Below are positions 32,278 through 50,766 of a stretch of 64,000 nt of DNA, piece by piece. Origin of the DNA: an uncultured delta proteobacterium. Its GTDB lineage: Bacteria; Myxococcota_A; Polyangia; Polyangiales; B10-G4. The stretch lies in contig CAVSGI010000009.1 of NCBI GenBank assembly GCA_963727445.1, positions 256,001-320,000 of the forward strand, read 5' to 3'. The notes beneath the pieces are model-generated. The model did not search any database and had not been told where the DNA came from. It worked only from the letters and a program-made list of their open reading frames with translations. The position numbers were made by a program, and so were the translations under genes. Positions within the stretch are counted from its first letter, which is position 1. The number at the start of each line of letters is the position of its first letter.

Positions 32278-32425
32278 GTGGAGCTCCACGCCCAACGGCC
32301 GGGTCGTGAGTACGACGACGCCTTCTGGCACGCCGTCCACGCTCTGTACGACGAAGCTTTTCCCGGACTGCCCGCGGGCATCGCCCGAGCGCGCGCGCTC
32401 GGCGTGCGCTGGCGCGACGTGACGT
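32278..32425 (+). pseudogene. 5' fragment of a probable GNAT acetyltransferase
   Basis: GTG just after the GST stop: VELHAQRPGREYDDAFWHAVHALYDEAFPGLPAGIARARALGVRWRDVTS, cut off by a tandem repeat; family call from recall. Confidence 0.45.
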
Positions 32426-32525
32426 CTGTCCGTCTTGACAGACCGCCCGCCCGAGGCGACCGCTCGCCCGACGCGTCCTGTCCGTCTTGACGGACCGCTC
32501 GCCCGAGGCGACCGCTCACCGACGG
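32426..32525. repeat. Two ~52 bp tandem repeats with palindrome GTCCGTC-TT-GACGGAC and 17 bp subunits
   Basis: Units start at 32426 and 32478; gaccgcYcgcccga-like subunit occurs four times. Confidence 0.75.
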
Positions 32526-32629: not shown

Positions 32630-32726
32630 CGGAGCGCTACGAAGTGTTCGCGTCGTCGTTCACGTCACCGCCCGTCGAAGGAAGACTTCGCGCGATGCGT
32701 CTCCGCCTCGCCGACGTCGCTGGGCT
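32630..32726 (+). repeat. Diverged 97 bp duplicate of 34777-34873 (upstream region and first codons of the WD40 gene)
   Basis: Shared core cgaaggaagacttcgcgcgatgcgtctccgcctcgccga. Confidence 0.85.
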
Positions 32727-32881: not shown

Positions 32882-32908
32882 CGGGGAGATCGAAACCCGG
32901 TTGGCGCC
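32882..32908 (+). mobile_element. Solo left terminal repeat of the HUH-transposase element
   Basis: cggggagatcgaaacccggttggcgcc vs 49278 cggggagat(gat)cgtaacccggttggcgcc. Confidence 0.8.
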
Positions 32909-34682: not shown

Positions 34683-34841
34683 TGTGGCGGTCCGTGGGTC
34701 GCGGATGGAGCCCGCCGTTCCGCCGCCGGTCCCTTCCGACGGGACGCGAGGCGGGGGCTGGTCGCGCCCGCGGTGACGGATCGCTACGAAGCGTTCGCTT
34801 CGTCGTTGACGTCACGGCCCCTCGAAGGAAGACTTCGCGCG

Positions 34842-35816
34842 ATGCGTCTCCGCCTCGCCGAAGTCGCTGGGCTGTCGGCCCGGCCCAATTCGCTCGCGGC
34901 GTCACCGGATGGTGAGACCATCGCTTGCACCCTCTTCGAGACGAAGAAGCTTCGCATCGGCGAGGCCGACACATTGGCGGAGCGCAAGACGATTCACCTC
35001 GGACAAGCGTTCACGCGCGGCTGCGCGTTTTCGGCGGACTCGAGTGAGGTCGTGGCGGGACAGAAGGAGCTGAAGGTCTTCTCGCTCGCGACATACAAGC
35101 CGGTCCGAAAGCTCGAGGGTCATCGGCACGACGTGACCCACGTCCAGCTCTGCGCCTCGGGGACGTTGGCGATCACCGCGAGCGGAGTCAATGTGGAGAA
35201 GGCCGACTGCTCCGTGCGAACCTGGGACTTCGCGTCGGGCAAAGAGCTGTCCCGCTGGAAGCTCCCGACCGCGGTGGACGGTCTCGCGGTGCGACCCGAC
35301 GGGTCGTTCGCGATCGGCGTGACCGCTGGCGGAGAGATCGTCGGAGGCGTGCCCGGCCAGAAGGAGCCGCTCTGGACGAGCCGGGCGCCTTCGCCCCCCA
35401 AGCGCGCGCACGGGATCCTGGTGTCGGCCGTATTGCCATCCGACCTCGAGACGGCCTGGATCGGCGGCCATCAGGGAGAGCTGTTCGAGGTCTCCGCCGC
35501 CGACGGCTCGATGATGCGTCAGGTCCGCCAGGCCGACCCCTGGTCGCATGTCGCCGCCGCGCTCGTGGATCTTCCGGAGAGTGCATGCTTCCTCGCCGGC
35601 TTTCATCTTCCAGGACACCTCCGAAAGGCCGCCATCGACCAACGGGGGGCCCGCGATGCGCACATCGCGGTGCTCGATCGCGACGGGGTCGAGGTGTGTT
35701 GGGCACCTGTCGAAGCGGGGCTCGTCGTCGCTGTCGCCGCGAGCTCGAACGGCGACGCCATCTTCGCCGCGACCGCGGAACCCGACGCGCTGCGTCGTTA
35801 CGTCGTCGAGCGGTAA
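34842..35816 (+). CDS. WD40-repeat beta-propeller protein
   Basis: LAASPDG, LEGHRHDV, SVRTWD, VRPDG. Confidence 0.75.
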   Translation: MRLRLAEVAGLSARPNSLAASPDGETIACTLFETKKLRIGEADTLAERKTIHLGQAFTRGCAFSADSSEVVAGQKELKVFSLATYKPVRKLEGHRHDVTHVQLCASGTLAITASGVNVEKADCSVRTWDFASGKELSRWKLPTAVDGLAVRPDGSFAIGVTAGGEIVGGVPGQKEPLWTSRAPSPPKRAHGILVSAVLPSDLETAWIGGHQGELFEVSAADGSMMRQVRQADPWSHVAAALVDLPESACFLAGFHLPGHLRKAAIDQRGARDAHIAVLDRDGVEVCWAPVEAGLVVAVAASSNGDAIFAATAEPDALRRYVVER

Positions 35817-35828
35817 CGGGGCCGGGGC

Positions 35829-37377
35829 CGGGGGAGATCGTAACCATGTTGGGATCGCGGGGGAGATCGTAACCATGTTGGCGCCGAGCCAGGGACGCCA
35901 GCACCACTGAGGGCCGAAAGTCGCGACAAAACCGCCGGTGGCGGCCGCCGGCGGAGTGGCGGACTTTCGCCACATGATCGGCGTAAGTGGTTGAAATGAG
36001 GTCGCCGATTTGTGGCGCCGTTCTGGCAGTGGGCGCGGAGCCATGTCCGCCCTCCGCAAGCCAAAAACCGCCTACGACCGCCACCTGCGCAGCCGACGAC
36101 GTCGGCGCAGCCGTCGTAAGCGCGTCCTGAAGGGCAAGATCTGGACGACGGTCCGCCGGACGACGCGACGTTACTTCCTCTTCCGGCCGGATGAAGAAGG
36201 AAAGGTAGCGGAGATCTTCTGGTACTGCCTCGCAGTCGCGGCGAAGAAGCACGGCATCGCCGTGCATGCCGCGGTGCTGATGTCGACGCACATCCACCTC
36301 GTCTACACCGACGTGCGCGGCGTGCAGCCCGACTTCAAGCGTGACTTCCACCGCACCTTCGCCCAGGGCCTGAAGGCGCTGCTCGGCTGGCCCGAGGAGG
36401 TCTTCAACAAGTACTTGGGCGGTGAGCACGAGCCGCTCACGGCCGACGCGGTCGCGGACGACATCGCCTACCTCATCGCCAATCCGGTCTCGGCCTTCGC
36501 CGTCCGCTACGCGAAGGACTGGCCCGGGGCCCAGACGCTGCCGAGGGACATCGGCCGGCGCGTCATCGAGGTGGCGCGGCCTGACGGCTACTTCGACGCC
36601 AACAATCCCGACTGGCCCGCGAAGGCGACGCTTCGCCTCGAGATGCCGGAGTGCCTCGTGACCATGTACGGAGAGGACGGAGCGCGCGCGAACCTCGCGC
36701 GTCGCGTGCGCGACTACGAGCGCGCGGCGTTCGCCGAGGCGAAGCAAGAGGGGATCGCCTTCAAGGGGGTGCGTCGGTGCATGCGGGTGGCGCGCACGGC
36801 ACGTGCGCGGAGCTGGGAGCTCTTCGGCAAGCTCAATCCTCGCTTCAAGGCCAGCGGTGACCTGGGCGCGGCGCGCGCCGCCATCGAAGAAAACGCGCAG
36901 TTCGACGAGGACTACGAAGCAGCGCTCGCGCGCTGGACCGCGGGCGACCGGCGGGTCGTCTTCCCTCACGGCACGTGGTGGATGCGCGTCCATCACGGGG
37001 TGCGGGTCGCACCCGCCCCGCGACGTCGGCTCTCTTCGTAGCGCCCTTCACGGCGCCCGGTCGGGCTCCCTGCGTGTCTGCGCCAAGCGCGGACGCGCAG
37101 CGGCGCGTCCGTCGGTCGCGTCCGACGCGACGCATGACGGTGACGGCGGTCGATTCCGCTCGAGGCGTGCGGTGATCCGCGACGCGCGGCGTCATCCCGG
37201 CCTCAGGTCCGACGCGCCATCGCTCCTTGCGCCGCTCCGCCCACCATCTGGGCTCGTCACTCCTCCGCCAACCTGGTCACGATCTCCCCCCCATCTCCCC
37301 CCGCCATCGCTCCTTGCGCCGCTCCGCCCACCATCTGGGCTCGTCACTCCTCCGCCAACCTGGTCACGATCTCCCCC
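35829..37377 (+). mobile_element. TIR-bounded HUH/Y1 transposase element, copy 1 (core 35859-37290, both ends duplicated)
   Basis: Left GGGGGAGATCGTAACCATGTTGG twice (35830, 35859); right CGCCAACCTGGTCACGATCTCCCCC twice (37266, 37353); near-identical to 49279-50713. Confidence 0.9.
36043..37041 (+). CDS. Y1 HUH tyrosine transposase (RAYT/IS200-like) with C-terminal extension
   Basis: HUH motif LMSTHIHLV, catalytic Tyr in YLIANPV, DWPG, FPHGTWWMR; 332 aa. Confidence 0.9.
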   Translation: MSALRKPKTAYDRHLRSRRRRRSRRKRVLKGKIWTTVRRTTRRYFLFRPDEEGKVAEIFWYCLAVAAKKHGIAVHAAVLMSTHIHLVYTDVRGVQPDFKRDFHRTFAQGLKALLGWPEEVFNKYLGGEHEPLTADAVADDIAYLIANPVSAFAVRYAKDWPGAQTLPRDIGRRVIEVARPDGYFDANNPDWPAKATLRLEMPECLVTMYGEDGARANLARRVRDYERAAFAEAKQEGIAFKGVRRCMRVARTARARSWELFGKLNPRFKASGDLGAARAAIEENAQFDEDYEAALARWTAGDRRVVFPHGTWWMRVHHGVRVAPAPRRRLSS

Positions 37378-37449
37378 GAGGGTAGAATGCTGTCGATTCC
37401 GCGTATACCGGCCCGAGACCCCGGCCCGAGACCGAGAATGCCGATTCAA

Positions 37450-38409
37450 ATGAGCTTCCTTCAACGCACGGCGCTGCTCTCGTCGACCATCGTGATCATC
37501 AGCGCGACGCTCGGCTGTGGCTCACGCCGGGGCGTCGTCAGCGACACGGGGGTCGCTCGCGACGCCTCGATGGATGGCGCCATCGGTGACGGTACGGTGG
37601 GCGACAGCGCATCGAGCGATGGCGCGGCGGACACCACGGTGGGTGACGGGTCCCTCGACAGCGAAACGCCGGGCGACGGGGGCGCGCCCTACATCGGTGA
37701 AGAGTGCTATCCCGACGACGCCTGCTGGAGCGGGTGTGGTGAGGACGCGCCGGTGCGCGACTGCGCGGCGGCCTGTCCGGCGGCCGGTCGGCAATGCTGG
37801 GAGGGTTGTCGTCGAGAGTTCATCTCGCTCGCGGAGTGCACGACGCTCTGTGGGTTCGACGGACCGGGCTCCCAGGCAGGATGCGCCGAGCTGTGCTCGG
37901 AGTATGGCGAGACGCTGGCGAGCTGTCGGTCACTTTGTGGCGACCTCACTAGCAACTGTGGCCAGGCGGCCTGCGTCCAACTCTGCCGAAACGAGGAACT
38001 GACGGCGGCGGAATGCGTCGCGGCGTGTCCCGCCTTCGATACGCCGTTGGGTATCGGCTGGTGCTACACCGCGTGCCTCGGAAACACCCCGGCCGCGGAG
38101 TGTCGCTCACTCTGCGGCGGCGCGGGGACGACCTGCGGAGAGAGCGGGTGCTGGCAGATCTGTGACGACGCCACCCCGCCGGCCAGCTGCGCGAGCACGT
38201 GTGGAGTGACGACGGCGTGCGGGATCGGTCGCTGCTACTTGCACTGTGGAAGAGCGGGGCTCGATTTCTCGGTGTGCCGCGAGACCTGCGGGTACGTGGA
38301 GGGGACTTGCGACTGCCTCTTCAGCGGCTCGGTTCGCGAGACGTGCATGGACGCCTGCCTCGAGGCGGGCGAGACCGGCACTCTCTGCGACATGATTTGC
38401 GCGCCCTGA
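37450..38409 (+). CDS. Cys-rich lipoprotein with repeated CxxxC units
   Basis: Lipobox TLGC, D/G/S linker, regularly spaced CxxxC pairs. Confidence 0.8.
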   Translation: MSFLQRTALLSSTIVIISATLGCGSRRGVVSDTGVARDASMDGAIGDGTVGDSASSDGAADTTVGDGSLDSETPGDGGAPYIGEECYPDDACWSGCGEDAPVRDCAAACPAAGRQCWEGCRREFISLAECTTLCGFDGPGSQAGCAELCSEYGETLASCRSLCGDLTSNCGQAACVQLCRNEELTAAECVAACPAFDTPLGIGWCYTACLGNTPAAECRSLCGGAGTTCGESGCWQICDDATPPASCASTCGVTTACGIGRCYLHCGRAGLDFSVCRETCGYVEGTCDCLFSGSVRETCMDACLEAGETGTLCDMICAP

Positions 38410-38886
38410 TTCGAGGATGTGCCGTCCGCCGTCGGTAGCGTGCAGTAGATGCCCATCAGCTCTCCGGCCAGGCGGCCCATCTCTCCCTCGCGCAACCCAC
38501 ACCCGCCAACGAAGCGGCGCAGACAAGAGCATCCCAAGACCGGATCTGCATGGGGATTGGGATGTCCCAAGACCCGATCGCGTCGATGACCACGTAAGGG
38601 CAAATTGGGGGAAGCCTCCCGAGCTCTTCTCGCACGAACGCGCTCGTCGGCCCTGTCGAGGAGCGGAACACGAAATGTGGGTCACCGAGCACTTTGTAGT
38701 GAATCGTAGGCGAGGAGCCGCCGTCCATCCCGGCGTCGTTGGAGAGGCGTGGCGGGTGCATGGGGCATCGGCCGCGAACGACCGGAGCGCGACGCGAGCA
38801 GCGTCGAGGCCACGGCCGGGGTGCACCTTGCGGGAGGAGTGCCCTTTCCAGCGGCGGTTTCCAACACGCATCGAGAGAATCCCGCA

Positions 38887-39162
38887 ATGAAAAAGTACAT
38901 TACCTTTCTCGCCTCCCTTCTCATCACCTTCACCGTCCTCAGCGGCTGCGGAAAGTCCGTCTGCGAAGAGATCGTCGACAAACAGGTCGCGTGCGACACG
39001 ACAGGCCTCGCCAGCGCCTTCCGCGGTGCCGCCGTCTCGGCCTGCGAGCAGTCCGACAACAGCAACGCAGACCTCGAAGCCTGCAACGACTGCCTCGAAG
39101 GCAAGAGCTGCGAGGAGATGAGCGAATGCGACACGGTCTGCGACTTCGGTAGCGGCAGCTGA
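38887..39162 (+). CDS. Small Cys-rich lipoprotein
   Basis: MKKYITFLASLLITFTVLSGC lipobox; acidic Cys-rich mature part. Confidence 0.8.
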   Translation: MKKYITFLASLLITFTVLSGCGKSVCEEIVDKQVACDTTGLASAFRGAAVSACEQSDNSNADLEACNDCLEGKSCEEMSECDTVCDFGSGS

Positions 39163-39499
39163 GGCGAGGGCGCAGCGCCGATACTCCGCATTTCCTGCAA
39201 CGCGGGGGATGCGACGATCGACTCGGTCGTGAACGCAGCGCCCGACGGGCCCGCAGAGGACACGGGCCCGTCGAAGTGCGCATTCCGGCGCGCCTTTCGA
39301 TCGATCCGATTGCAGAAGCTCGGTCTGCGGCGTCAACGTTGGAAGCAGCTTTGGTGTCGGCCTCGTCGCTTCTGCTATGGCGACGGCCTCGCGTGAGCAC
39401 TCCGAGGACCAAGTCGGTGGCGCCAGTCCGCCTCGCGCTCGCGCTCCCCGAGCCCAACGGAGCCCGCGCTCGACCTGCGGGTCCACGCCATCGCGCGGG

Positions 39500-39688
39500 C
39501 GGTTCGAATCTCTGGCAGTGGCAGGGTCAGTCCTCGAATCTCGGCCCCAACGACACGCGCGTCGTCGTCGACGACCGCTTCACCCCCGACGGCGAGCTCT
39601 GCCCATGTGGGTGATGCATCGCGACGAAGAGGGCGCCGTCATCCGCGATGGCGAGGTCGAGCGGGAAGAGCCCTTCGGCGGTTCGTGA
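39500..39688 (+). pseudogene. Frameshifted C-terminal gene fragment of unknown family
   Basis: GC3-biased frames ...NLGPNDTRVVVDDRFTPDGE / LPMWVMHRDEEGAVIRDGEVEREEPFGGS*; no start. Confidence 0.4.
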
Positions 39689-39758
39689 CCAGCAGAGCAG
39701 CCGGCGGCTCCCGCCGAAACCACCCCCCAACCGAACGCGCCGTAGTAGGTTCTTCAGG

Positions 39759-40247
39759 ATGCGAGCCCCCAGCTTCACGCTTCTCGTCTCTGTCATCGCC
39801 GCGTCCCTCCCCCTCGGTTGCACCGCCGACACCACGCCCGGTGGCCCGCCGATGTGCACCGGCGGCGGCTGTACGACCTGCGTAGCGACCGACTGCACCT
39901 GCAGCGGCGGAGGCCGGTGCATGACGGTGTGCGAAGACGGCTGCAACCTGACCTGTTCGGGCTCCGCCGGCTGCTCCGGCGAGTGTGGTAACGACTGCAA
40001 CTTCACCTGCTCCGGCACGGACGAGTGCAACGTCGTCGTCGGTGCGCGCTCCGAGATCACGTGCTCGGGCTCTCACGGGTGCGTGGTCGAGTGCGTCGGC
40101 GGCAACTGCGTGGCTTCGTGCGGCGGGAGCGATGGGTGCGCGATCGTCTGCTCGGACGGTGGCTGCACCATCGATTCGTGCGCCGAGGGCGATGTGCAGG
40201 AGTGCGCCGACGGGACGCTCGTCTGCGCGCGCGCCTGTCCAGAGTGA
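39759..40247 (+). CDS. Cys-rich repeat lipoprotein
   Basis: Lipobox PLGC; repeated C-xxx-CSG-xxx-C units. Confidence 0.8.
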   Translation: MRAPSFTLLVSVIAASLPLGCTADTTPGGPPMCTGGGCTTCVATDCTCSGGGRCMTVCEDGCNLTCSGSAGCSGECGNDCNFTCSGTDECNVVVGARSEITCSGSHGCVVECVGGNCVASCGGSDGCAIVCSDGGCTIDSCAEGDVQECADGTLVCARACPE

Positions 40248-40370
40248 GCCTCGAGCGTCCGACGCTCCCACCGGGTCATGCCGTCGATGCGATCGAACCT
40301 TCGTCGAAGAAGGGGACGAGCGGTTACCGCCTCGCCACAGGCGGTGCCTTGGAAGATGCCGAGGCGGAAA

Positions 40371-40590
40371 TCAGTCCCGCGACACGATGGTGCAGGTCTC
40401 CGTCTCGGGGTCGAAAGTGATCACCGCGGTTCCGGCGGCGAGCTCGGCCCGGACGCGCTCGCGCTTGGTTTCGATCGGGACGTCCGTGTGCCCATAGTCG
40501 GTGCCTTCCCGGAGCACGTAGTCGTCGATGACGCTGTCGAGCGCTTCGGGGCTCAGGCGCTCGGGAGGGGATCTCGAAAGGGTCGCTCAT
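40371..40590 (-). pseudogene. yheU: YheU (UPF0270) family gene with a +1 frameshift in a C run (possible sequencing error)
   Basis: Removing one C at 40567-40570 gives MSDPFEIPPERLSPEALDSVIDDYVLREGTDYG...TIVSRD*; LREGTDYG is the YheU signature; length 220 = 3n+1. Confidence 0.8.
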
Positions 40591-40722
40591 CGTCCCAGAT
40601 GCTCGTCGAGGAACGGAAGATTGTCGTCCGCCTGTTCTGCCACCGGGAGTTGCGTGGATTGCAGGGAGCTGCGGCCCCCGTTGCTCCGGCGGCATTCCGT
40701 GATTCGCGGCATACCGTGAGCG

Positions 40723-41772
40723 TCACCCACTCGGGTCGAAAGGCTCGGCGCCTTCGATCGCGCGTCGGATCGCCCGCAGAGGTCCCTCACATCGCGAGAG
40801 GCGAAGAAGCTCGACGGGTGAGCCGTGCTCGATCGACGAATCCTCCTCCGTGAACGGAAGGAACGGAGCGCTGAAGCCGAAAATCGTCGTGCATTCGCTC
40901 GGCCGATCCGTCGCAGACGCGGCGAGCGTCGTCGACGCCGCCGCGACGTCGCTGAGGGCGTGGCCGCGAGCACCTCGAGTCCCGTAGCGCTCTGGCTCCA
41001 ACGCGCTTCGCACCGGAGACTGAGTGTCGAACGCTTTCATGTCGATCTCGGAAAGGGTCGAATCGCACGAGCCGTCGAAGCGTGACCGGTACTCGCCATC
41101 CGCCTGCGGGAGTAGCAGGTCGTAGGAGCACGACGCGCCCGATCGCTGGACCACGCCCAGGAGGCTGGCTCGTTTCACCTCGTAGCGGTCTGGTACGCCG
41201 CTGACGACCGACTCCGGGACGTGGATGTGAAAGCGCACCTGCGCAGCTTCCTCCTCTTCCCCGGACGCCGTCACGAAGTTGGCGCCTCCGATGAACGTCC
41301 GACAGCGCACCCCATCGCGCTCCATCGGTCCCACTGAGTACATCTCGGCATGTGTAGCCCTGAGGCCGGGTGTGGAGATCTCCGCGCGCCGTCCGCAGGT
41401 GAGTGCCCCGTCGTCGCGCAGGGGCGCGAGCGTCAACGTCAGGGTCGTGGCATCCGCTTCACGCGCGGTGAACGAGACAAGAGACCGGCCCTCGCAGTCG
41501 GCGCTCGTCGCGACGGAGCGCGGGTCGAGCCTCAATCGGTGCCGCTCCGCCCATCGAGGCCGCGCGATGAGCTCGATCTCGCTCTCTCCACAAGGCGCAG
41601 CTGTGGGTGAGTCGTCTTCGAGCGGCGCGGCCGGGGGGGACGGCACGGTCTCGGACGGCACGGTCTGGGACGGCACGGTCTGGGTCGGCGTCGCTGACGC
41701 GCCATCATCGTCCCCACACGCGACGAGCAACAGAGCGAAGAAACCCCACGCGAGTGCATCGCCGCGATTCAC
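40723..41772 (-). CDS. Hypothetical lipoprotein
   Basis: Lipobox LVAC, TVPS repeats; start uncertain. Confidence 0.6.
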   Translation of the reverse strand: MNRGDALAWGFFALLLVACGDDDGASATPTQTVPSQTVPSETVPSPPAAPLEDDSPTAAPCGESEIELIARPRWAERHRLRLDPRSVATSADCEGRSLVSFTAREADATTLTLTLAPLRDDGALTCGRRAEISTPGLRATHAEMYSVGPMERDGVRCRTFIGGANFVTASGEEEEAAQVRFHIHVPESVVSGVPDRYEVKRASLLGVVQRSGASCSYDLLLPQADGEYRSRFDGSCDSTLSEIDMKAFDTQSPVRSALEPERYGTRGARGHALSDVAAASTTLAASATDRPSECTTIFGFSAPFLPFTEEDSSIEHGSPVELLRLSRCEGPLRAIRRAIEGAEPFDPSG

Positions 41773-42086
41773 GCCCGGAAGAATAGCAAGCGGCGAGCGG
41801 CTTGGCTCCGGGGGTCTCGGGCCGGCGAGCAGAGCGCTCTTCGGTCCGCGCGCTCCGCTCAACGAGGCGGCCGTCGTGCGTAACGAACTCCACGGCCGCG
41901 CCGTAGCCGGTGCCGTCACTCTTACGCACCTTGGCGAGATGGATGCTCGTGCCGTGAGCATCGACGGCTGTCTCGAGGAAGCGGCGCGTGCGTCGCCAGG
42001 AAGAAAGAAAAAGCCTGAACTTTCCCTCTCCGAGGCGTCCAAACTGTCGTGAAAATCCCAGCGCACCTCGTCGTCAGCCGCGACGC

Positions 42087-43514
42087 TCAGATGGCCCGGA
42101 TGGCCATCGCGAAGGTGATCTCGCGCAGGTTGTTGAGCCCCTTGTTGAGCGTGCCGTCGTTGTCCGAGTCACCGACCGCCCAGGTCTCCCAGGTCAGACC
42201 GTCGTCCCTCTGCTGGCAGGCATTGTTGTTCATCCGATCCTGTTGCTGATCGTCGAGCGCCATCAGGAACGCTTGGCCGTTGACCTCGCTGTAGCCATAG
42301 ATGCGCACCATGTGGCCGCTCGTGACCACCTCGCCATTCGGGGTCTGGGCGAGTCGGTTGAAGGCGAGGACGACGGCGTCGCCGTTCTCGAGATGGTCCC
42401 GTATCCAGGGCACGGTCACCGCGCTGCCCATCGCAGGGCTCACCGGATCCGGTTCCACGATCGAATCCGCGCAGTCATCCGGAAGGTCGTCGAGAACGCC
42501 TTGATGCTCGAGCACGACGTCCTGGTTCAAGTCGGTGTTCTCGAGGTAGGCGTAGAGCCCGTTCATCATGCCACCCTGGTTACTGACGTCGAAACAGTAG
42601 GCGATCGAGCCGCCGTTGCAGGTGTCCGTCGCCGGACGCTGCGAGAGCACATCGAGTATGCCGACGAGGCCGGGACCACCGCCGAGACCACGAATGTTCG
42701 GGTGCGGCACATCGAGGCCGAAGGTGCCTTCCAGGTAGGCGAGCGCATTGGCGTATGCGACCGGTCCACACTGGTTCTGCGCCGAGTTGACGTTCTCCTC
42801 AGCCGGCAGGCTCACCGTATACCAACTCTGGACGCCGAGCTCCGGCTCGATCGGCTCTGGGGCGAGGACCGGCGGCGCCTCCGGGGGCTCGGGGGGCAAC
42901 CCATCGGGGGGCGGCACAGTGATGCCCGACGGTTGAGTCATCTGGGTCGTCGCGACCGCGATGGGCAACAGGCGGGCGCGCTCCCACGTCCTGAGGTCCC
43001 GGCCACTGCTGAGCGGCTCGCTGGTGAAGATGACGAGCAAGTCAGTGGTGCGAAGTCGGCTCTCGGTTCCCAGGTTGAAATAGGTACGGACCGGAGGAAC
43101 GAAGGTCGGATCCGCGGCGCGCAAGCGACGAACTCGCTCCGGCCAGTCGTTGTTCGGTTGCGACTGAATCGGCAGGTTGTGCACGACCCATCCGAGCTCG
43201 TTGCGCGCGCTCAGAAAGCCCCGACTCGCGCCTGTCTGGCGCGCGACCGCGATCGGATCGACCGACAGCGCTCCCCAGGCCGACATGCCGCCCTCCTCGA
43301 CGAAGTCGATCTGCTCGACCGCAAATGCGTCGTCATCGAGGACCACCGAGGTGGACCGGGTCGAATCGTCCCGTGACCGCGAAAGGCTCCCATCGCCGCT
43401 GCGAAGAGCGCCACTCTGGAAGCCAGCCTCCCCCCCGGCGTCCGCCGCGCAGCCCCCCAGTCCAGCCGAGGCCAGCAGAATCGCGAGCACTGAATGAAGA
43501 CGATACCGATGCAT
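42087..43514 (-). CDS. Lipoprotein with papain/C39-like cysteine peptidase domain
   Basis: Lipobox LGGC, Pro linker, NQCGPVAYANAL and GHMVRIYGY; RBS-like gaggag. Confidence 0.7.
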   Translation of the reverse strand: MHRYRLHSVLAILLASAGLGGCAADAGGEAGFQSGALRSGDGSLSRSRDDSTRSTSVVLDDDAFAVEQIDFVEEGGMSAWGALSVDPIAVARQTGASRGFLSARNELGWVVHNLPIQSQPNNDWPERVRRLRAADPTFVPPVRTYFNLGTESRLRTTDLLVIFTSEPLSSGRDLRTWERARLLPIAVATTQMTQPSGITVPPPDGLPPEPPEAPPVLAPEPIEPELGVQSWYTVSLPAEENVNSAQNQCGPVAYANALAYLEGTFGLDVPHPNIRGLGGGPGLVGILDVLSQRPATDTCNGGSIAYCFDVSNQGGMMNGLYAYLENTDLNQDVVLEHQGVLDDLPDDCADSIVEPDPVSPAMGSAVTVPWIRDHLENGDAVVLAFNRLAQTPNGEVVTSGHMVRIYGYSEVNGQAFLMALDDQQQDRMNNNACQQRDDGLTWETWAVGDSDNDGTLNKGLNNLREITFAMAIRAI

Positions 43515-43606
43515 TTCCGTTTCTCCTCTTGGGGGCCGACTTAGGCCAGGGGGCGGAGGGGGCCGGCCTGAGGCCCCCAGAACCTGGCCAACCCGCATGG
43601 ATGAAC

Positions 43607-43622
43607 AGCAACGGGCATGCCG
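43607..43622 (-). promoter_or_regulatory. Putative sigma54 promoter
   Basis: Minus strand CGGCATG-CCCG-TTGCT, GG-N10-GC. Confidence 0.6.
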
Positions 43623-43687
43623 ACGCGTTCGCAGCGGTACTGACACCACATTGACTCGCGATTCGCGTCGATGAATGCAGCATCGGA

Positions 43688-43722
43688 ATGGACCAGGTGG
43701 ACCACTGAACCAGCTGGTCCAC
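43688..43722. promoter_or_regulatory. TGGACCA repeat cluster, putative enhancer
   Basis: atggaccag gtggaccac tgaaccagc tggtccac. Confidence 0.5.
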
Positions 43723-43811
43723 GCGCCGCGAACGTCGCTGCTGAGTAAGAGCCCGGTAAAAGGGGGGAGCTCGAAGGAATCGCGACGAGGGCGCGCTTCG
43801 TACACCTGGTC

Positions 43812-44708
43812 ATGAGGCAATGGTGGGTGATCGGGGCGGTGCTGCTCGCGGCGAGCGTGGCGACACCAGTGGCGGCGCAGCGAGGAAGAGCAGGACGAGC
43901 GGGGCACGCGCCCTTCTACTTCGGCGGTCCGCTCGGGCTGCGTGACGCGACGGAGGAGCAGATCGCGGCGCTGCTTCCGCGCGCGGACTGGGTCGACGAT
44001 GTGGATCGAGTCGAGGCGTACGTCCCCGTGTCGGACGCGGGGACCGGCGTGGTCGTTCTCGAGCGGATCCGCGCGACCCAGGGCTCGGACGTGTTCCTCT
44101 GCATCGATCACGACGGCCGCCATCGCTGCGGTGCCTTCGACGTCGGTCGCGAGGGCTGGGAGCTGATCCGTATCGTCCAGCGTGTCGAGCCCCTCGACGA
44201 CGACACCTACGTCGTCGAGTCGGCGATGCGCATGGACGGCGGCAACGGGGAAGGAAGCGGCGCGTATGGGAGCGCCGAGCTCCATCTCGTCGACGTGGTA
44301 GGGGACGATCTCGCCCGCCGCGGCTGGGTGCCGATCAGCGGGATGGAGTGGATGACGATCAACGCATGCGGCTGGGACGAGCCCTGCTACGTTCGACAGG
44401 TGCGCCGCGCGCACATCCCTTGGTCGGTCACTGCGCCGGGACGCTTACGCCTCGGCGCCGTTCGCGCGGAGCGCGTCGTCGCCGACGGGCTCTTTCGCGC
44501 GTACCGGACGCCTCCCGGGCGTTCCCGCGCCCACGGGCCGAAGCGTCTGCGCGGACGCGCCGCGGCCACCGTGCTCGCCCTCGGCTTCCCCGAAGTCCGT
44601 GCGGGCGAGACGCTCCTTCCCGTCGGCCGCGATCTGCGAGGCTGCTATGACGACGAGGGCACGACCCTGACACGCGTCGGTTGCCGCCAAACGGGGAGCA
44701 GGCCCTAG
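43812..44708 (+). CDS. Hypothetical secreted protein
   Basis: Signal peptide ending AAQ; GC3 bias. Confidence 0.65.
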   Translation: MRQWWVIGAVLLAASVATPVAAQRGRAGRAGHAPFYFGGPLGLRDATEEQIAALLPRADWVDDVDRVEAYVPVSDAGTGVVVLERIRATQGSDVFLCIDHDGRHRCGAFDVGREGWELIRIVQRVEPLDDDTYVVESAMRMDGGNGEGSGAYGSAELHLVDVVGDDLARRGWVPISGMEWMTINACGWDEPCYVRQVRRAHIPWSVTAPGRLRLGAVRAERVVADGLFRAYRTPPGRSRAHGPKRLRGRAAATVLALGFPEVRAGETLLPVGRDLRGCYDDEGTTLTRVGCRQTGSRP

Positions 44709-45592: not shown

Positions 45593-45613
45593 GATGCGGT
45601 GTTCTACCACAGC

Positions 45614-45793
45614 GCGGACGTGGCTCGCGCCCAGTGCCAGAACGGCGCCGCAAATCGCCGACCTGGTTTCAAGCGCCCTTCACGGCGCCCGGCGTCATTC
45701 CGGCCTCAGGTGCGACTCGCCATCGCTCCTTGCGCCGCGCAGCCCACCATCTGGGCTCGTCACTCCTCCGCCAACCTGGTCACGATCTCCCCC
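45614..45793. mobile_element. Rearranged non-autonomous derivative of the HUH element
   Basis: 45614-45672 matches the reverse complement of 35991-36050; 45673-45793 matches 37041-37060 joined to 37190-37290, including the right TIR. Confidence 0.85.
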
Positions 45794-45845
45794 GCGCCCG
45801 ACTCGACGAAAGCGCGCGAAGCGCGCCATCATCGGCGGGTCGGCC

Positions 45846-46825
45846 ATGTCCAACTTCTTCGAGCTCTCGACGCGCGTCCTTTCGTGCGACCACTGCGGTG
45901 CCCCGGTGGAGGTGCCGATCGAAGGCGGCCAGGTGTCCTGTCGCTACTGCAACGCGACGGTGATCGTGACGGCGCGGCCGGTGATCCAGCCGCGCGCCGC
46001 CACGTCCGCAGACGTGAGTGTGGTGGCGGAAGGGACGCGGCTCGCGAAGCTGCGAGAGCAGAATCCCAACGCGGAGATCCCGCCGCTTCACCTCCTCCGA
46101 CTCTGCTCCGGCCTGCTGCTCGAGACGGACAAGCGCCCGCGCGCCCTCGAGCTCTTTCAGGCCGCGCGAAAGAAGCTCGCGGAGGGCGACGACGCGGAGG
46201 CGGAGCGAGACCTCTACTTCCTGGCCATCCTCTTTTCGAACTACTACCGGAAGGAAGGCGACTACCTGCGCCTCCGCGCCTTCCTCGAGTCCGCCCTCGA
46301 AGCGGCCCCCGCTCCGAGGATCTCAACGCCGACACCGACTACCGAGCGAGCCGGGCGTTTCTCGCGATCGTGCGGGGCGACTTCGCGGACGTCCTCGAGA
46401 CCCTGGGCGAGAAGTACGGCGACGTTCCGATCGCCGGTGACAGCACTGCCATGTGCTCCCTCTACCGGGCGCACGCCCTCGAGATGACGAAGGGGGCCGA
46501 CGCGGCGGCGGGTGAGCTCGTCCGGATGGCGGAGCGCTCCCAAGCCGACTGGTTCGCGACGAAGCGGGCGCGAAAGAACAACGAGAAGACCGGCCTGGTC
46601 CTGTGTCCGGAGAGCTACGCGATCGCCCACAAGAGGCTCCCGTGGTCGAAGACCAGCCCCTACGCGACCCCGCTCAGCTACGCTGCCGTCCTGGCCATGG
46701 CGCTCGGGATCATGGCCCTCCTGGGAGCGTCGACGACCGCTTTGGCCGTCGTCGGAGGCTTGGGTGGTGTCTTGGTGCTCATCATCGCGCGGAAGTGGAT
46801 CGCGATGGGACGCGACAGCGAGTAG
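45846..46825 (+). pseudogene. Zn-ribbon/helical membrane-anchored protein broken by a frameshift or deletion near 46310
   Basis: CDHCGAP...CRYCN N-terminus in one frame; SEDLNADTDYR...two TM segments in another. Confidence 0.65.
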
Positions 46826-46877: not shown

Positions 46878-46981
46878 GACGACGGTCCGCCGGACAACGC
46901 GACGGTACGTCCTCTTCCGGCCGGATAGAGAAGGAAAGGTAGCGGAGATCTTCTGGTATTGCCTCGCCGTCGCGGCGAAGA
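46878..46981 (+). mobile_element. ~104 bp internal fragment of the HUH transposase gene
   Basis: TTVRRTTRRYVLFRPDREGKVAEIFWYCLAVAAK; diverged copy of ~36145-36248. Confidence 0.9.
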
Positions 46982-46999
46982 TGCTACCGAGAGAAGAGT

Positions 47000-49227: not shown

Positions 49228-49277
49228 GGGTTCCTTTATAGCAAGAGCCCCAATCCAGGCGAATTCGGATGGGGCGC

Positions 49278-50759
49278 CGGGGAGATGATCGTAACCCGGT
49301 TGGCGCCGAGCCAGGGACGCCAGCACCACTGAGGGCCGAAAGTCGCGACAAAACCGCCGGTGGCGGCCGCCGGCGGAGTGGCGGACTTTCGCCACATGAT
49401 CGGCGTAAGTGGTTGAAATGAGGTCGCCGATTTGTGGCGCCGTTCTGGCAGTGGGCGCGGAGCCATGTCCGCCCTCCGCAAGCCAAAAACCGCCTACGAC
49501 CGCCACCTGCGCAGCCGACGACGTCGGCGCAGCCGTCGTAAGCGCGTCCTGAAGGGCAAGATCTGGACGACGGTCCGCCGGACGACGCGACGTTACTTCC
49601 TCTTCCGGCCGGATGAAGAAGGAAAGGTAGCGGAGATCTTCTGGTACTGCCTCGCAGTCGCGGCGAAGAAGCACGGCATCGCCGTGCATGCCGCGGTGCT
49701 GATGTCGACGCACATCCACCTCGTCTACACCGACGTGCGCGGCGTGCAGCCCGACTTCAAGCGTGACTTCCACCGCACCTTCGCCCAGGGCCTGAAGGCG
49801 CTGCTCGGCTGGCCCGAGGAGGTCTTCAACAAGTACTTGGGCGGTGAGCACGAGCCGCTCACGGCCGACGCGGTCGCGGACGACATCGCCTACCTCATCG
49901 CCAATCCGGTCTCGGCCTTCGCCGTCCGCTACGCGAAGGACTGGCCCGGGGCCCAGACGCTGCCGAGGGACATCGGCCGGCGCGTCATCGAGGTGGCGCG
50001 GCCTGACGGCTACTTCGACGCCAACAATCCCGACTGGCCCGCGAAGGCGACGCTTCGCCTCGAGATGCCGGAGTGCCTCGTGACCATGTACGGAGAGGAC
50101 GGAGCGCGCGCGAACCTCGCGCGTCGCGTGCGCGACTACGAGCGCGCGGCGTTCGCCGAGGCGAAGCAAGAGGGGATCGCCTTCAAGGGGGTGCGTCGGT
50201 GCATGCGGGTGGCGCGCACGGCACGTGCGCGGAGCTGGGAGCTCTTCGGCAAGCTCAATCCTCGCTTCAAGGCCAGCGGTGACCTGGGCGCGGCGCGCGC
50301 CGCCATCGAAGAAAACGCGCAGTTCGACGAGGACTACGAAGCAGCGCTCGCGCGCTGGACCGCGGGCGACCGGCGGGTCGTCTTCCCTCACGGCACGTGG
50401 TGGATGCGCGTCCATCACGGGGTGCGGGTCGCACCCGCCCCGCGACGTCGCCTCTCTTCGTAGCGCCCTTCACGGCGCCCGGTCGGGCTCCCTGCGTGTC
50501 TGCGCCGAGCGCGGACACGCAGCGGCGCGTCCGTCGGTCGCGTCCGACGCGACGCATGACGGTGACGGCGGTCGATTCCGCTCGAGGCGTGCGGTGATCC
50601 GCGACGCGCGGCGTCATTCCGGCCTCAGATCCGACGCGCCATCGCTCCTTGCGCCGCTCCGCCCACCATCTGGGCTCATCACTCCTCCGCCAACCTGGTC
50701 ACGATCTCCCCCCGCCTCCGCCAACCTGGTCACGATCTCCCCTCCGCCCGCACGATCTC
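49278..50759 (+). mobile_element. TIR-bounded HUH/Y1 transposase element, copy 2 (core 49279-50713)
   Basis: Left TIR variant with a GAT duplication; right TIR at 50688-50713 and 50719-50742, partial at 50751-50759. Confidence 0.9.
49465..50463 (+). CDS. Y1 HUH tyrosine transposase, identical protein to 36043-37041
   Basis: Identical translation in the ORF track. Confidence 0.9.
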   Translation: MSALRKPKTAYDRHLRSRRRRRSRRKRVLKGKIWTTVRRTTRRYFLFRPDEEGKVAEIFWYCLAVAAKKHGIAVHAAVLMSTHIHLVYTDVRGVQPDFKRDFHRTFAQGLKALLGWPEEVFNKYLGGEHEPLTADAVADDIAYLIANPVSAFAVRYAKDWPGAQTLPRDIGRRVIEVARPDGYFDANNPDWPAKATLRLEMPECLVTMYGEDGARANLARRVRDYERAAFAEAKQEGIAFKGVRRCMRVARTARARSWELFGKLNPRFKASGDLGAARAAIEENAQFDEDYEAALARWTAGDRRVVFPHGTWWMRVHHGVRVAPAPRRRLSS

Positions 50760-50766
50760 GCGCCGT

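Follow-up and report, generated by a model that had tools for sequence, protein, structure and literature searches.

Organisation of the element and its copies

The window, i.e. the whole 64-kb stretch of DNA that was analysed, carries a 1.43-kb unit bounded by inverted ends of approximately 20 bp, the sole gene of which encodes an HUH/Y1 protein of 332 aa. The first-pass annotation had described this unit together with a near-identical second copy and the absence of tnpB, and these points were confirmed: copy 2 is offset from copy 1 by 13,422 bp, and a second gene of tnpB size is absent from the unit. The features directly observed or predicted at the locus are as follows (strand in brackets, where assigned):

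32882..32908 (+): solo left-tip unit of approximately 26 nt, 3 kb upstream of copy 1
35830..35858 (+): copy 1, left side: 23-nt unit re-copied from the tip, and a short filler that contains a micro-unit
35859..35883 (+): innermost tip of the left inverted end of copy 1, with its AGATC at 35864
35940..35954: GC-rich palindrome, conserved in the left end
35984..35996 (+): IHF-like site, just upstream of the following motif
36014..36027 (+): predicted sigma54-type GG-N10-GC promoter motif
36043..37041 (+): HUH/Y1 transposase gene of copy 1, coding for 332 aa (H83, H85, Y143, N147)
37266..37290 (-): innermost tip of the right inverted end of copy 1
37291..37377 (-): re-copies on the right side of copy 1, namely a micro-unit of 8 nt and a unit of 76 bp up to the outer tip
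45611..45793: gene-less scrambled remnant, composed of an inverted inner left-end piece and 111 bp of right end with tip
46878..46984 (+): transposase fragment of 107 bp, 92.5% identical
49279..50743 (+): copy 2, with its gene at 49465-50463 and a 3-nt stutter in the left tip
50712 and 50743: right tips of copy 2, with a partial unit to approximately 50760

The homology between the two copies (35856-37291 versus 49275-50713, 99.2%) ends at the tips and the flanks differ. Six substitutions were detected over 1,410 nt, one of them in the coding sequence, and the two proteins are identical. As the homology does not extend past the tips on either side, the two copies do not represent a segmental duplication, an alternative that the first-pass annotation had itself raised. 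The 25-nt end motif reported there was matched eight times in the window with at most three mismatches (compared to none in 100 shuffles), while a ninth full tip, at 49279, contains an internal repeat of 3 nt, and there are partial tips at approximately 37293-37300 and 50750-50760; the earlier count of nine full and two partial motifs was thereby reproduced.

Contigs of unrelated public runs also carry pieces of the element. In contigs of runs X1, X3 and X4, the element terminates at 50712-50714 and adjoins three different flanks there, one of which (run X3) reproduces the tip-flank junction at 45793, while the flank seen in run X4 is absent from the window. Neither a circular or linear intermediate nor an end-to-end joint was detected in the low-depth contigs of these runs. 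A same-genus genome (G001) yielded no empty site for the window copies, the region being without synteny.

A number of further observations were made in the surroundings of these copies. A different tandem repeat family, with a period of approximately 50 bp, is present at 32423-32521, 360 bp from the solo tip, and forms arrays elsewhere in the host genome (G000; C9:695478-695896 and C10:635074-635208); it possibly constitutes the end of another element. The start of a WD40 gene (34777-34873) is copied at 32630-32726, just upstream of the solo tip (97 bp, 93% identical). Small genes resembling CxxC zinc ribbons adjoin element ends in three places (window approximately 45844-46400, and G000 C21 approximately 36100 and C20 approximately 111950), and the successive ORFs between element pieces at 37387-44414 are cysteine-rich or resemble lipoproteins and match no Pfam family.

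The transposase, its upstream region and its distribution

The HIH and YxxxNPV motifs attributed to the protein in the first-pass annotation were located at H83-I-H85 and Y143-x3-N147-P-V, separated by an HUH-to-Tyr distance of 60 aa, and H83, H85, Y143 and N147 are conserved at 99-100% among 234 homologues. The very basic N-terminus that had also been described is indeed present in the window protein, but is mostly confined to its subfamily, most homologues starting near residue 23-25 and the typical family protein being approximately 305 aa in length. In an AlphaFold model (pLDDT 84.5), the best fold match is TnpA-REP of E. coli (PDB 4ER8; Foldseek E 4e-4; VIA Z 11.1, rmsd 3.5, 156 aligned), followed by the IS608 and Sulfolobus transposases. 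With an HUH motif and a tyrosine within Y-x3-NP on a Y1 core fold, the protein belongs to HUH/Y1 class 2. Neither the window protein nor any of 32 close relatives gave a Pfam match to Y1_Tnp or an HTH, while 28 of 81 broad members match Y1_Tnp (PF01797); the Pfam HTH families Bac_DnaA_C, HTH_23 and HTH_28 were matched by none of the 32 close and 81 broad members. The model NF047646 is matched by 80 of the 81 broad members at E<=0.01, the window protein reaching 23.6 bits against a cut-off of 80.

The C-terminal domain (residues approximately 165-326) ends in FPxGTWWM and is modelled as long helices and strands. When these approximately 160 residues were folded alone (pLDDT 80, pTM 0.47), Foldseek returned no match at E<=0.001 and the best VIA Z was 4.1, on a generic helix; judged from these models, the fold searches indicate neither a known nor a new fold. 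An ESM Atlas search retrieved unnamed Myxococcota clusters only.

Of 99 dereplicated left ends, 82 contain a GGCA-N8-GC motif at a distance of 14-16 nt upstream of the start codon, compared to 792 of 8,886 background ORFs of the host genome; a further count gave 111 of 144, versus 4 and 3 in controls. The IHF-like site was found in 35 of 99 left ends and in 0/99 and 2/109 control stretches. The consensus of the left-end promoter motif is CGGCACG-N4-TCGCT, that given for sigma54 being TGGCACG-N4-TTGC(T/A) (PMC7910581), and the host genome encodes sigma54. Control of the transposase gene by sigma54 is predicted from sequence, although the GGCA-N8-GC motif could instead bind the transposase. The left-end palindrome is a possible site for an activator or for the transposase.

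In the host genome, five full-length copies are close (80-100% aa), two copies are at 40% and others are more distant; the 42 tip matches of this genome are mostly situated beside family genes. Genome G503, on the other hand, displays 268 tip-core matches versus 6 in controls, many of them in solo tandem arrays; cognate repeats are dispersed in G503 and not in G000. Several genomes hold many copies at unrelated sites. The family comprises 735 clusters at 50% identity (E<=1e-30) and was detected in 31 of 61 relatives, in 61 of 101 genomes of the class and, at E<=1e-60, in 9 of 61 across the phylum, with no match among 72,556 plasmids. Among named records, Myxococcota genomes and Sorangium proteins predominate, and cultured myxobacteria with single-contig genomes are among the carriers. 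A record titled Coxiellaceae (L090/G112) groups with the class of the window in a genome search, its title probably being mislabelled, and a gene-less mini-element of approximately 95 bp, bearing both tips of a second subfamily, lies at G000 C5:175031-175130.

One orthologous site is occupied in 14 genomes of genus g120. The median dN/dS of the gene at this site (0.16 at dS 0.95, 91 pairs; the naive C9/C13 value was excluded owing to an indel) is that of a gene under purifying selection, and the element ends are rewritten in each genome. Two copies in G491 are 99.6% identical over 1,092 bp, comprising the core only; since near-identity is confined to the core, gene conversion does occur and can mimic recent transposition. 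The description of the element as recently mobile thus gives half of the picture, as family members also reside at the shared g120 site and conversion can have the same appearance.

Inverted ends, tip re-copies and junction turnover

The family end reads AGATCCGACC..GTTG and, as a matrix derived from 222 ends, AGATCCGACCGA[GC]GTTG; it is nearly always directed inward and is positioned about 175 nt before and 240 nt after the gene. The AGATC...GTTG part is kept among the 222 family ends, while the four outer positions are variable, the outer bases differing between the two ends and among elements. The GGGG of the window ends is local, variable outer sequence. More distant members carry a related ACC-N2/3-GTT core in their ends, and exact inverted matches of at least 13 nt were detected in 8 of 54 of these, compared to 18 of 600 shuffled pairs. 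Pairing within the ends equals the independent expectation, folding energies equal those of shuffles, and alignment folding of whole ends revealed no compensatory changes; a hairpin or structured RNA in the ends was rejected for want of covariation. The longest flank-to-flank match reached at least 7 nt in 1 of 88 elements versus 8 of 400 shuffled pairs, and a fixed target duplication was rejected in the window and in the family, as the first-pass annotation had noted for the former.

Outside the innermost tip, nested copies of the element end are observed, often accompanied by purine-rich filler. After ends with less than 150 nt of flank, containing N or identical to another had been dropped, such re-copies were recorded at 131 of 216 distinct ends (left 65/110, right 66/106). 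A first parse had identified them at 127 of 208 ends, compared to 36 of 674 control GATC sites; the parser relies on the 5-nt tip of each end itself, and very short units include chance hits (approximately 5% in controls). In a tip-agnostic scan of 200 ends, 67% of 236 exact repeats start at positions -6 to +1, with the mode at -2, and their ends spread out to +201. The re-copies thus begin some 2 nt beyond the tip and terminate at any position, exact templated units attaining 100-200 nt, and on the AGATC strand of both element ends a fixed 5' start is linked to variable 3' ends. Of 292 junctions, 165 contain filler, 55 are blunt and 72 display an overlap (microhomology). The filler is composed of 37% A, 30% G, 23% C and 10% T, whereas A and T each make up 19% of the flanks, and no base preference was detected at the variable end, where a second cleavage would fall, among 84 units. 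In L061 and L120 the tip itself is lost, in what look like microhomology joins. The extra end motifs of the window are polar nested re-copies of the tips and not separate insertions, a property that the first-pass annotation had missed although it is the most telling one of the element, and they likely record the position at which the enzyme cuts and the manner in which the DNA is rejoined. Distant relatives of approximately 440 aa with a further C-terminal extension (G000 C12:51805-53133 and C20:110131-111882) possess reiterated ends of their own, and tip arrays devoid of a transposase are situated between two 72%-identical paralogues of a cargo gene in L374 (G514) and L372 (G489).

Turnover of the junctions is seen directly when elements with a shared flank are compared: the junctions differ at 11 of 14 such ends (10 non-redundant pairs), 68 of 117 pairs that are identical throughout, many representing duplicate data, having been left out of this count. 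Rewriting of junctions goes on after insertion. Tip-anchored losses of flank amount to 34 bp (L080/L195), 83 bp (L172/L174) and 1.25 kb (G503 versus G533). In L065/L161, L141/L116 and L171/L178, as in the window copies, one or both flanks of near-identical elements are switched at the tip, pairs at 99% identity having both flanks different, while L086 and L095 (98.9% identical) share a three-unit end and L151/L154 resembles a crossover inside the element. An apparent long-range inversion or rearrangement between L141 and G219 was not counted, as it falls at an N gap in G219.

A clean empty site was recovered at none of six filled loci compared with relatives (L060, L073, L087, L121, L077 and L357): either one flank matches and the other derives from a different context, or the element lies within a variable cargo patch between core genes. 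These relatives are approximately 80-97% identical, so that a precise original insertion could have eroded. The only target that could be reconstructed is that of L088:274-4142, where an element, 1.4 kb of cargo and 173 bp of another right end are surrounded by a 463-bp target duplication. Single flanking gene duplications exist in L088, L071 and G514; a role of the element as an engine of tandem gene duplication was rejected, there being no enrichment (3/41 element loci versus 4/100 control windows, p=0.41). Additionally, a 2.26-kb segment between a right end and a solo right tip (L250:10420-12688, G009) is arranged otherwise in G039, the left flank of L073 adjoins, by eye, an apparent tRNA 3' end, and this tRNA-like piece recurs three times around cargo in L324 (G039), in the pattern of an integration hotspot.

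Proposed mechanism and relation to known elements

The reading to which we lend somewhat better than even credence is that the enzyme nicks each tip, keeps hold of the element 5' end and rejoins it to any available 3'-OH. A RAYT-like HUH/Y1 nuclease would likely nick each end some 2-4 nt beyond the AGATC tip, would remain bound to the element 5' end via Tyr143 as a 5'-phosphotyrosine, and would be released by whichever DNA 3'-OH is near. The tip would be re-copied where the 3' end of the flank itself, extended for some distance into the element by a host polymerase, serves as acceptor; if that 3' end were first trimmed or tailed, a tip-anchored deletion or filler would result. A 3' end elsewhere, e.g. 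of nascent DNA at a fork, would provide a new neighbour for that end, and if both ends were rejoined elsewhere with replication between them, the whole unit would move without a fixed target duplication. While the sequences themselves establish the anatomy, the polar nature of the re-copies, the turnover of junctions and the missing target duplication, the position and strand of the nick, the phosphotyrosine step, the acceptors and the control by sigma54 are inferred. Cleavage by HUH enzymes yields a 5'-phosphotyrosine together with a free 3'-OH that can prime synthesis or attack the linkage (PMC8266576), and this chemistry gives the fixed-5'/variable-3' polarity observed here, which supports nicking and rejoining. 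Nick, extension and rejoining were also proposed for BIME amplification, with a second cut in that case (PMC3333891); the fillers and the absent base preference suggest a free end in the present family. A fully promiscuous acceptor is nevertheless an extrapolation, as the attacking strand has to end in a 3' C in the case of E. coli TnpA-REP, which cuts between C and T (PMC8266576).

Several other explanations bear on the same junctions. The enzyme might only make or provoke breaks at the tips, by fork collapse at a nick or through a linear intermediate, with host Ku/LigD end-joining, or repeated re-priming at the free end of the template, writing the stutters, fillers and deletions. The 72 microhomology junctions would be expected from such processes too, the genome has Ku, and the 165 filler junctions and the tip losses in L061 and L120 fit equally; we hold this explanation to be unlikely all the same, given the 55 blunt junctions, the intact tip with which most units start, and the exact templated units of 100-200 nt, a length that is long for end-joining fill-in. 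Sharing of one flank only can, moreover, come from recombination between copies or from mis-joined repeats. Copies and stutters could also be assembly artefacts, as the host assembly is incomplete (27 contigs), repeats can be mis-joined or collapsed and L138/L145 may be a repeat collapse; this is scarcely credible when the same signature recurs at more than 200 ends in many assemblies, including single-contig genomes, when L086 and L095 share their three-unit end, and when contigs of other runs reproduce the boundary.

An IS608-like route, in which the inverted ends would form a single-stranded panhandle, a circle would be excised and precisely inserted, and the stutters would be later by-products, is in keeping with the core fold common to IS200/IS605 transposases, with the missing target duplication and with the two-tip mini-element on contig C5. 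We regard it as quite improbable: no clean empty site emerged from the six comparisons, the ends lack a covarying hairpin, their outer bases differ between ends and between elements, and the L088 insertion carries its 463-bp duplication. Still somewhat less probable is a resident, REPtron-like domesticated gene of which only tip fragments spread, near-identical copies arising through gene conversion of old ones. The single orthologous site with its low dN/dS in g120, the many solo arrays of G503, the core-only identity of the G491 copies and the lack of plasmid matches agree with residence, and are to be set against the many copies at unrelated sites in several genomes, the window copies that match from tip to tip, the 99%-identity pairs in which both flanks differ, and the few tips of G000, mostly beside family genes. 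Returning to nicking and rejoining, a more far-reaching version would be a categorically different mode of transposition that mirrors the DDE type: the two element ends would be held as 5'-phosphotyrosine tips and ligated to any 3' end by a sigma54-driven enzyme, retained by myxobacteria as a signal-switched device for the reshuffling, deletion and recruitment of accessory genes at the tips; we offer this as a doubtful possibility.

The nearest named class is TIRYT/TIRtron (Di Nocera et al. 2013, PMC3733652), the broad definition of which, a Y1 gene between inverted repeats, applies to the element; most TIRYTs belong to TnpA-Y1 subclass 2.1 of Quentin et al. (2018), i.e. RAYT group 1. A Y-x3-NP HUH/Y1 gene between inverted repeats in place of GTAG hairpins, repeats that also occur singly or grouped elsewhere and some recent duplicates (6.3% in RAYT group 1, PMC5581495) are shared. 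The link to TIRYTs drawn in the first-pass annotation holds to this extent, but its GGGG argument is weak because the G-run is variable outer sequence and is not conserved among the 222 ends: the repeats of most published TIRYTs contain GGGGWSAS (PMC3733652), to which the window end conforms at 7 of 8 positions, and the family end does not. Additionally, a C-terminal HTH was reported for all 20 subclass-2.1 TIRYTs by Quentin et al. (2018, bioRxiv 279083), whereas the present family displays no detected HTH and a C-terminal domain of approximately 160 aa without a fold match; for TIRYTs, the portion of PMC3733652 available makes no mention of polar re-copies of the tips or of a promoter of sigma54 type. 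Subclass 2.3 of Quentin et al. (2018) resembles the family in its long protein (approximately 325 aa) with a long C-terminal tail and in several copies per genome without REPs, but has a median HUH-to-Tyr distance of 110 aa with an insertion domain and is hosted by Chromatiales/Alteromonadales rather than Myxococcota. Since 28 of 81 broad members match PF01797, some relatives could be included in the published TnpA-Y1 data set.

RAYT/TnpA-REP of E. coli (4ER8) is the best structural match, with the same catalytic signature, and TnpA-REP/BIME systems likewise exhibit local tandem amplification of the cognate repeat and long residence at fixed loci. Unlike the REPs of RAYTs/REPtrons (subclasses 2.2 and 2.5), however, the repeat, a sequence motif, has neither a covarying hairpin nor a GTAG foot and points inward at both ends; the gene is multi-copy in near-identical whole units, unlike tnpA-REP, which is described without evidence of mobility, and, compared with single-copy, vertically inherited RAYTs/REPtrons, the family is multi-copy yet vertical at one site. 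IS200/IS605 elements (IS608, ISDra2), which move through a single-stranded circle and have a tetranucleotide target, share the Y1 core fold and the absence of target duplication, but have Y-x3-Q instead of Y-x3-NP, half the protein length (approximately 150 aa), subterminal hairpins instead of inverted ends, often tnpB, and precise empty sites, the last two of which were not found here. IS91/ISCR elements and Helitrons join a fixed end to variable termination points and carry adjacent DNA along, features that recur in the family; they belong to a different HUH family, and here both ends are fixed starts, on opposite strands. In the largely non-subscription literature covered, no account of the family, of tip re-copies or of a sigma54-driven HUH transposase was encountered. 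The earlier view of a poorly characterised HUH/Y1 element with inverted ends is supported, and on sequence grounds the family appears to be an unclassified myxobacterial branch of inverted-end RAYT-like elements, the natural junctions of which clearly record polarity and the position of the cut.

The action of the TIR-flanked relatives of RAYTs, and the mobility of class-2 Y1 elements itself, are called open in the literature covered. The family offers a sequence-level prediction of the strand and position of the nick, plus hundreds of natural junctions, and together with cultured hosts possessing single-contig genomes this renders the question accessible to experiment. Should the enzyme indeed link fixed 5' ends to 3' ends of any kind, it would represent an unusual, programmable ligation chemistry and a candidate source of the hypervariable gene patches in these large genomes; if the transposase is controlled by sigma54, this would point to activity timed by the host.
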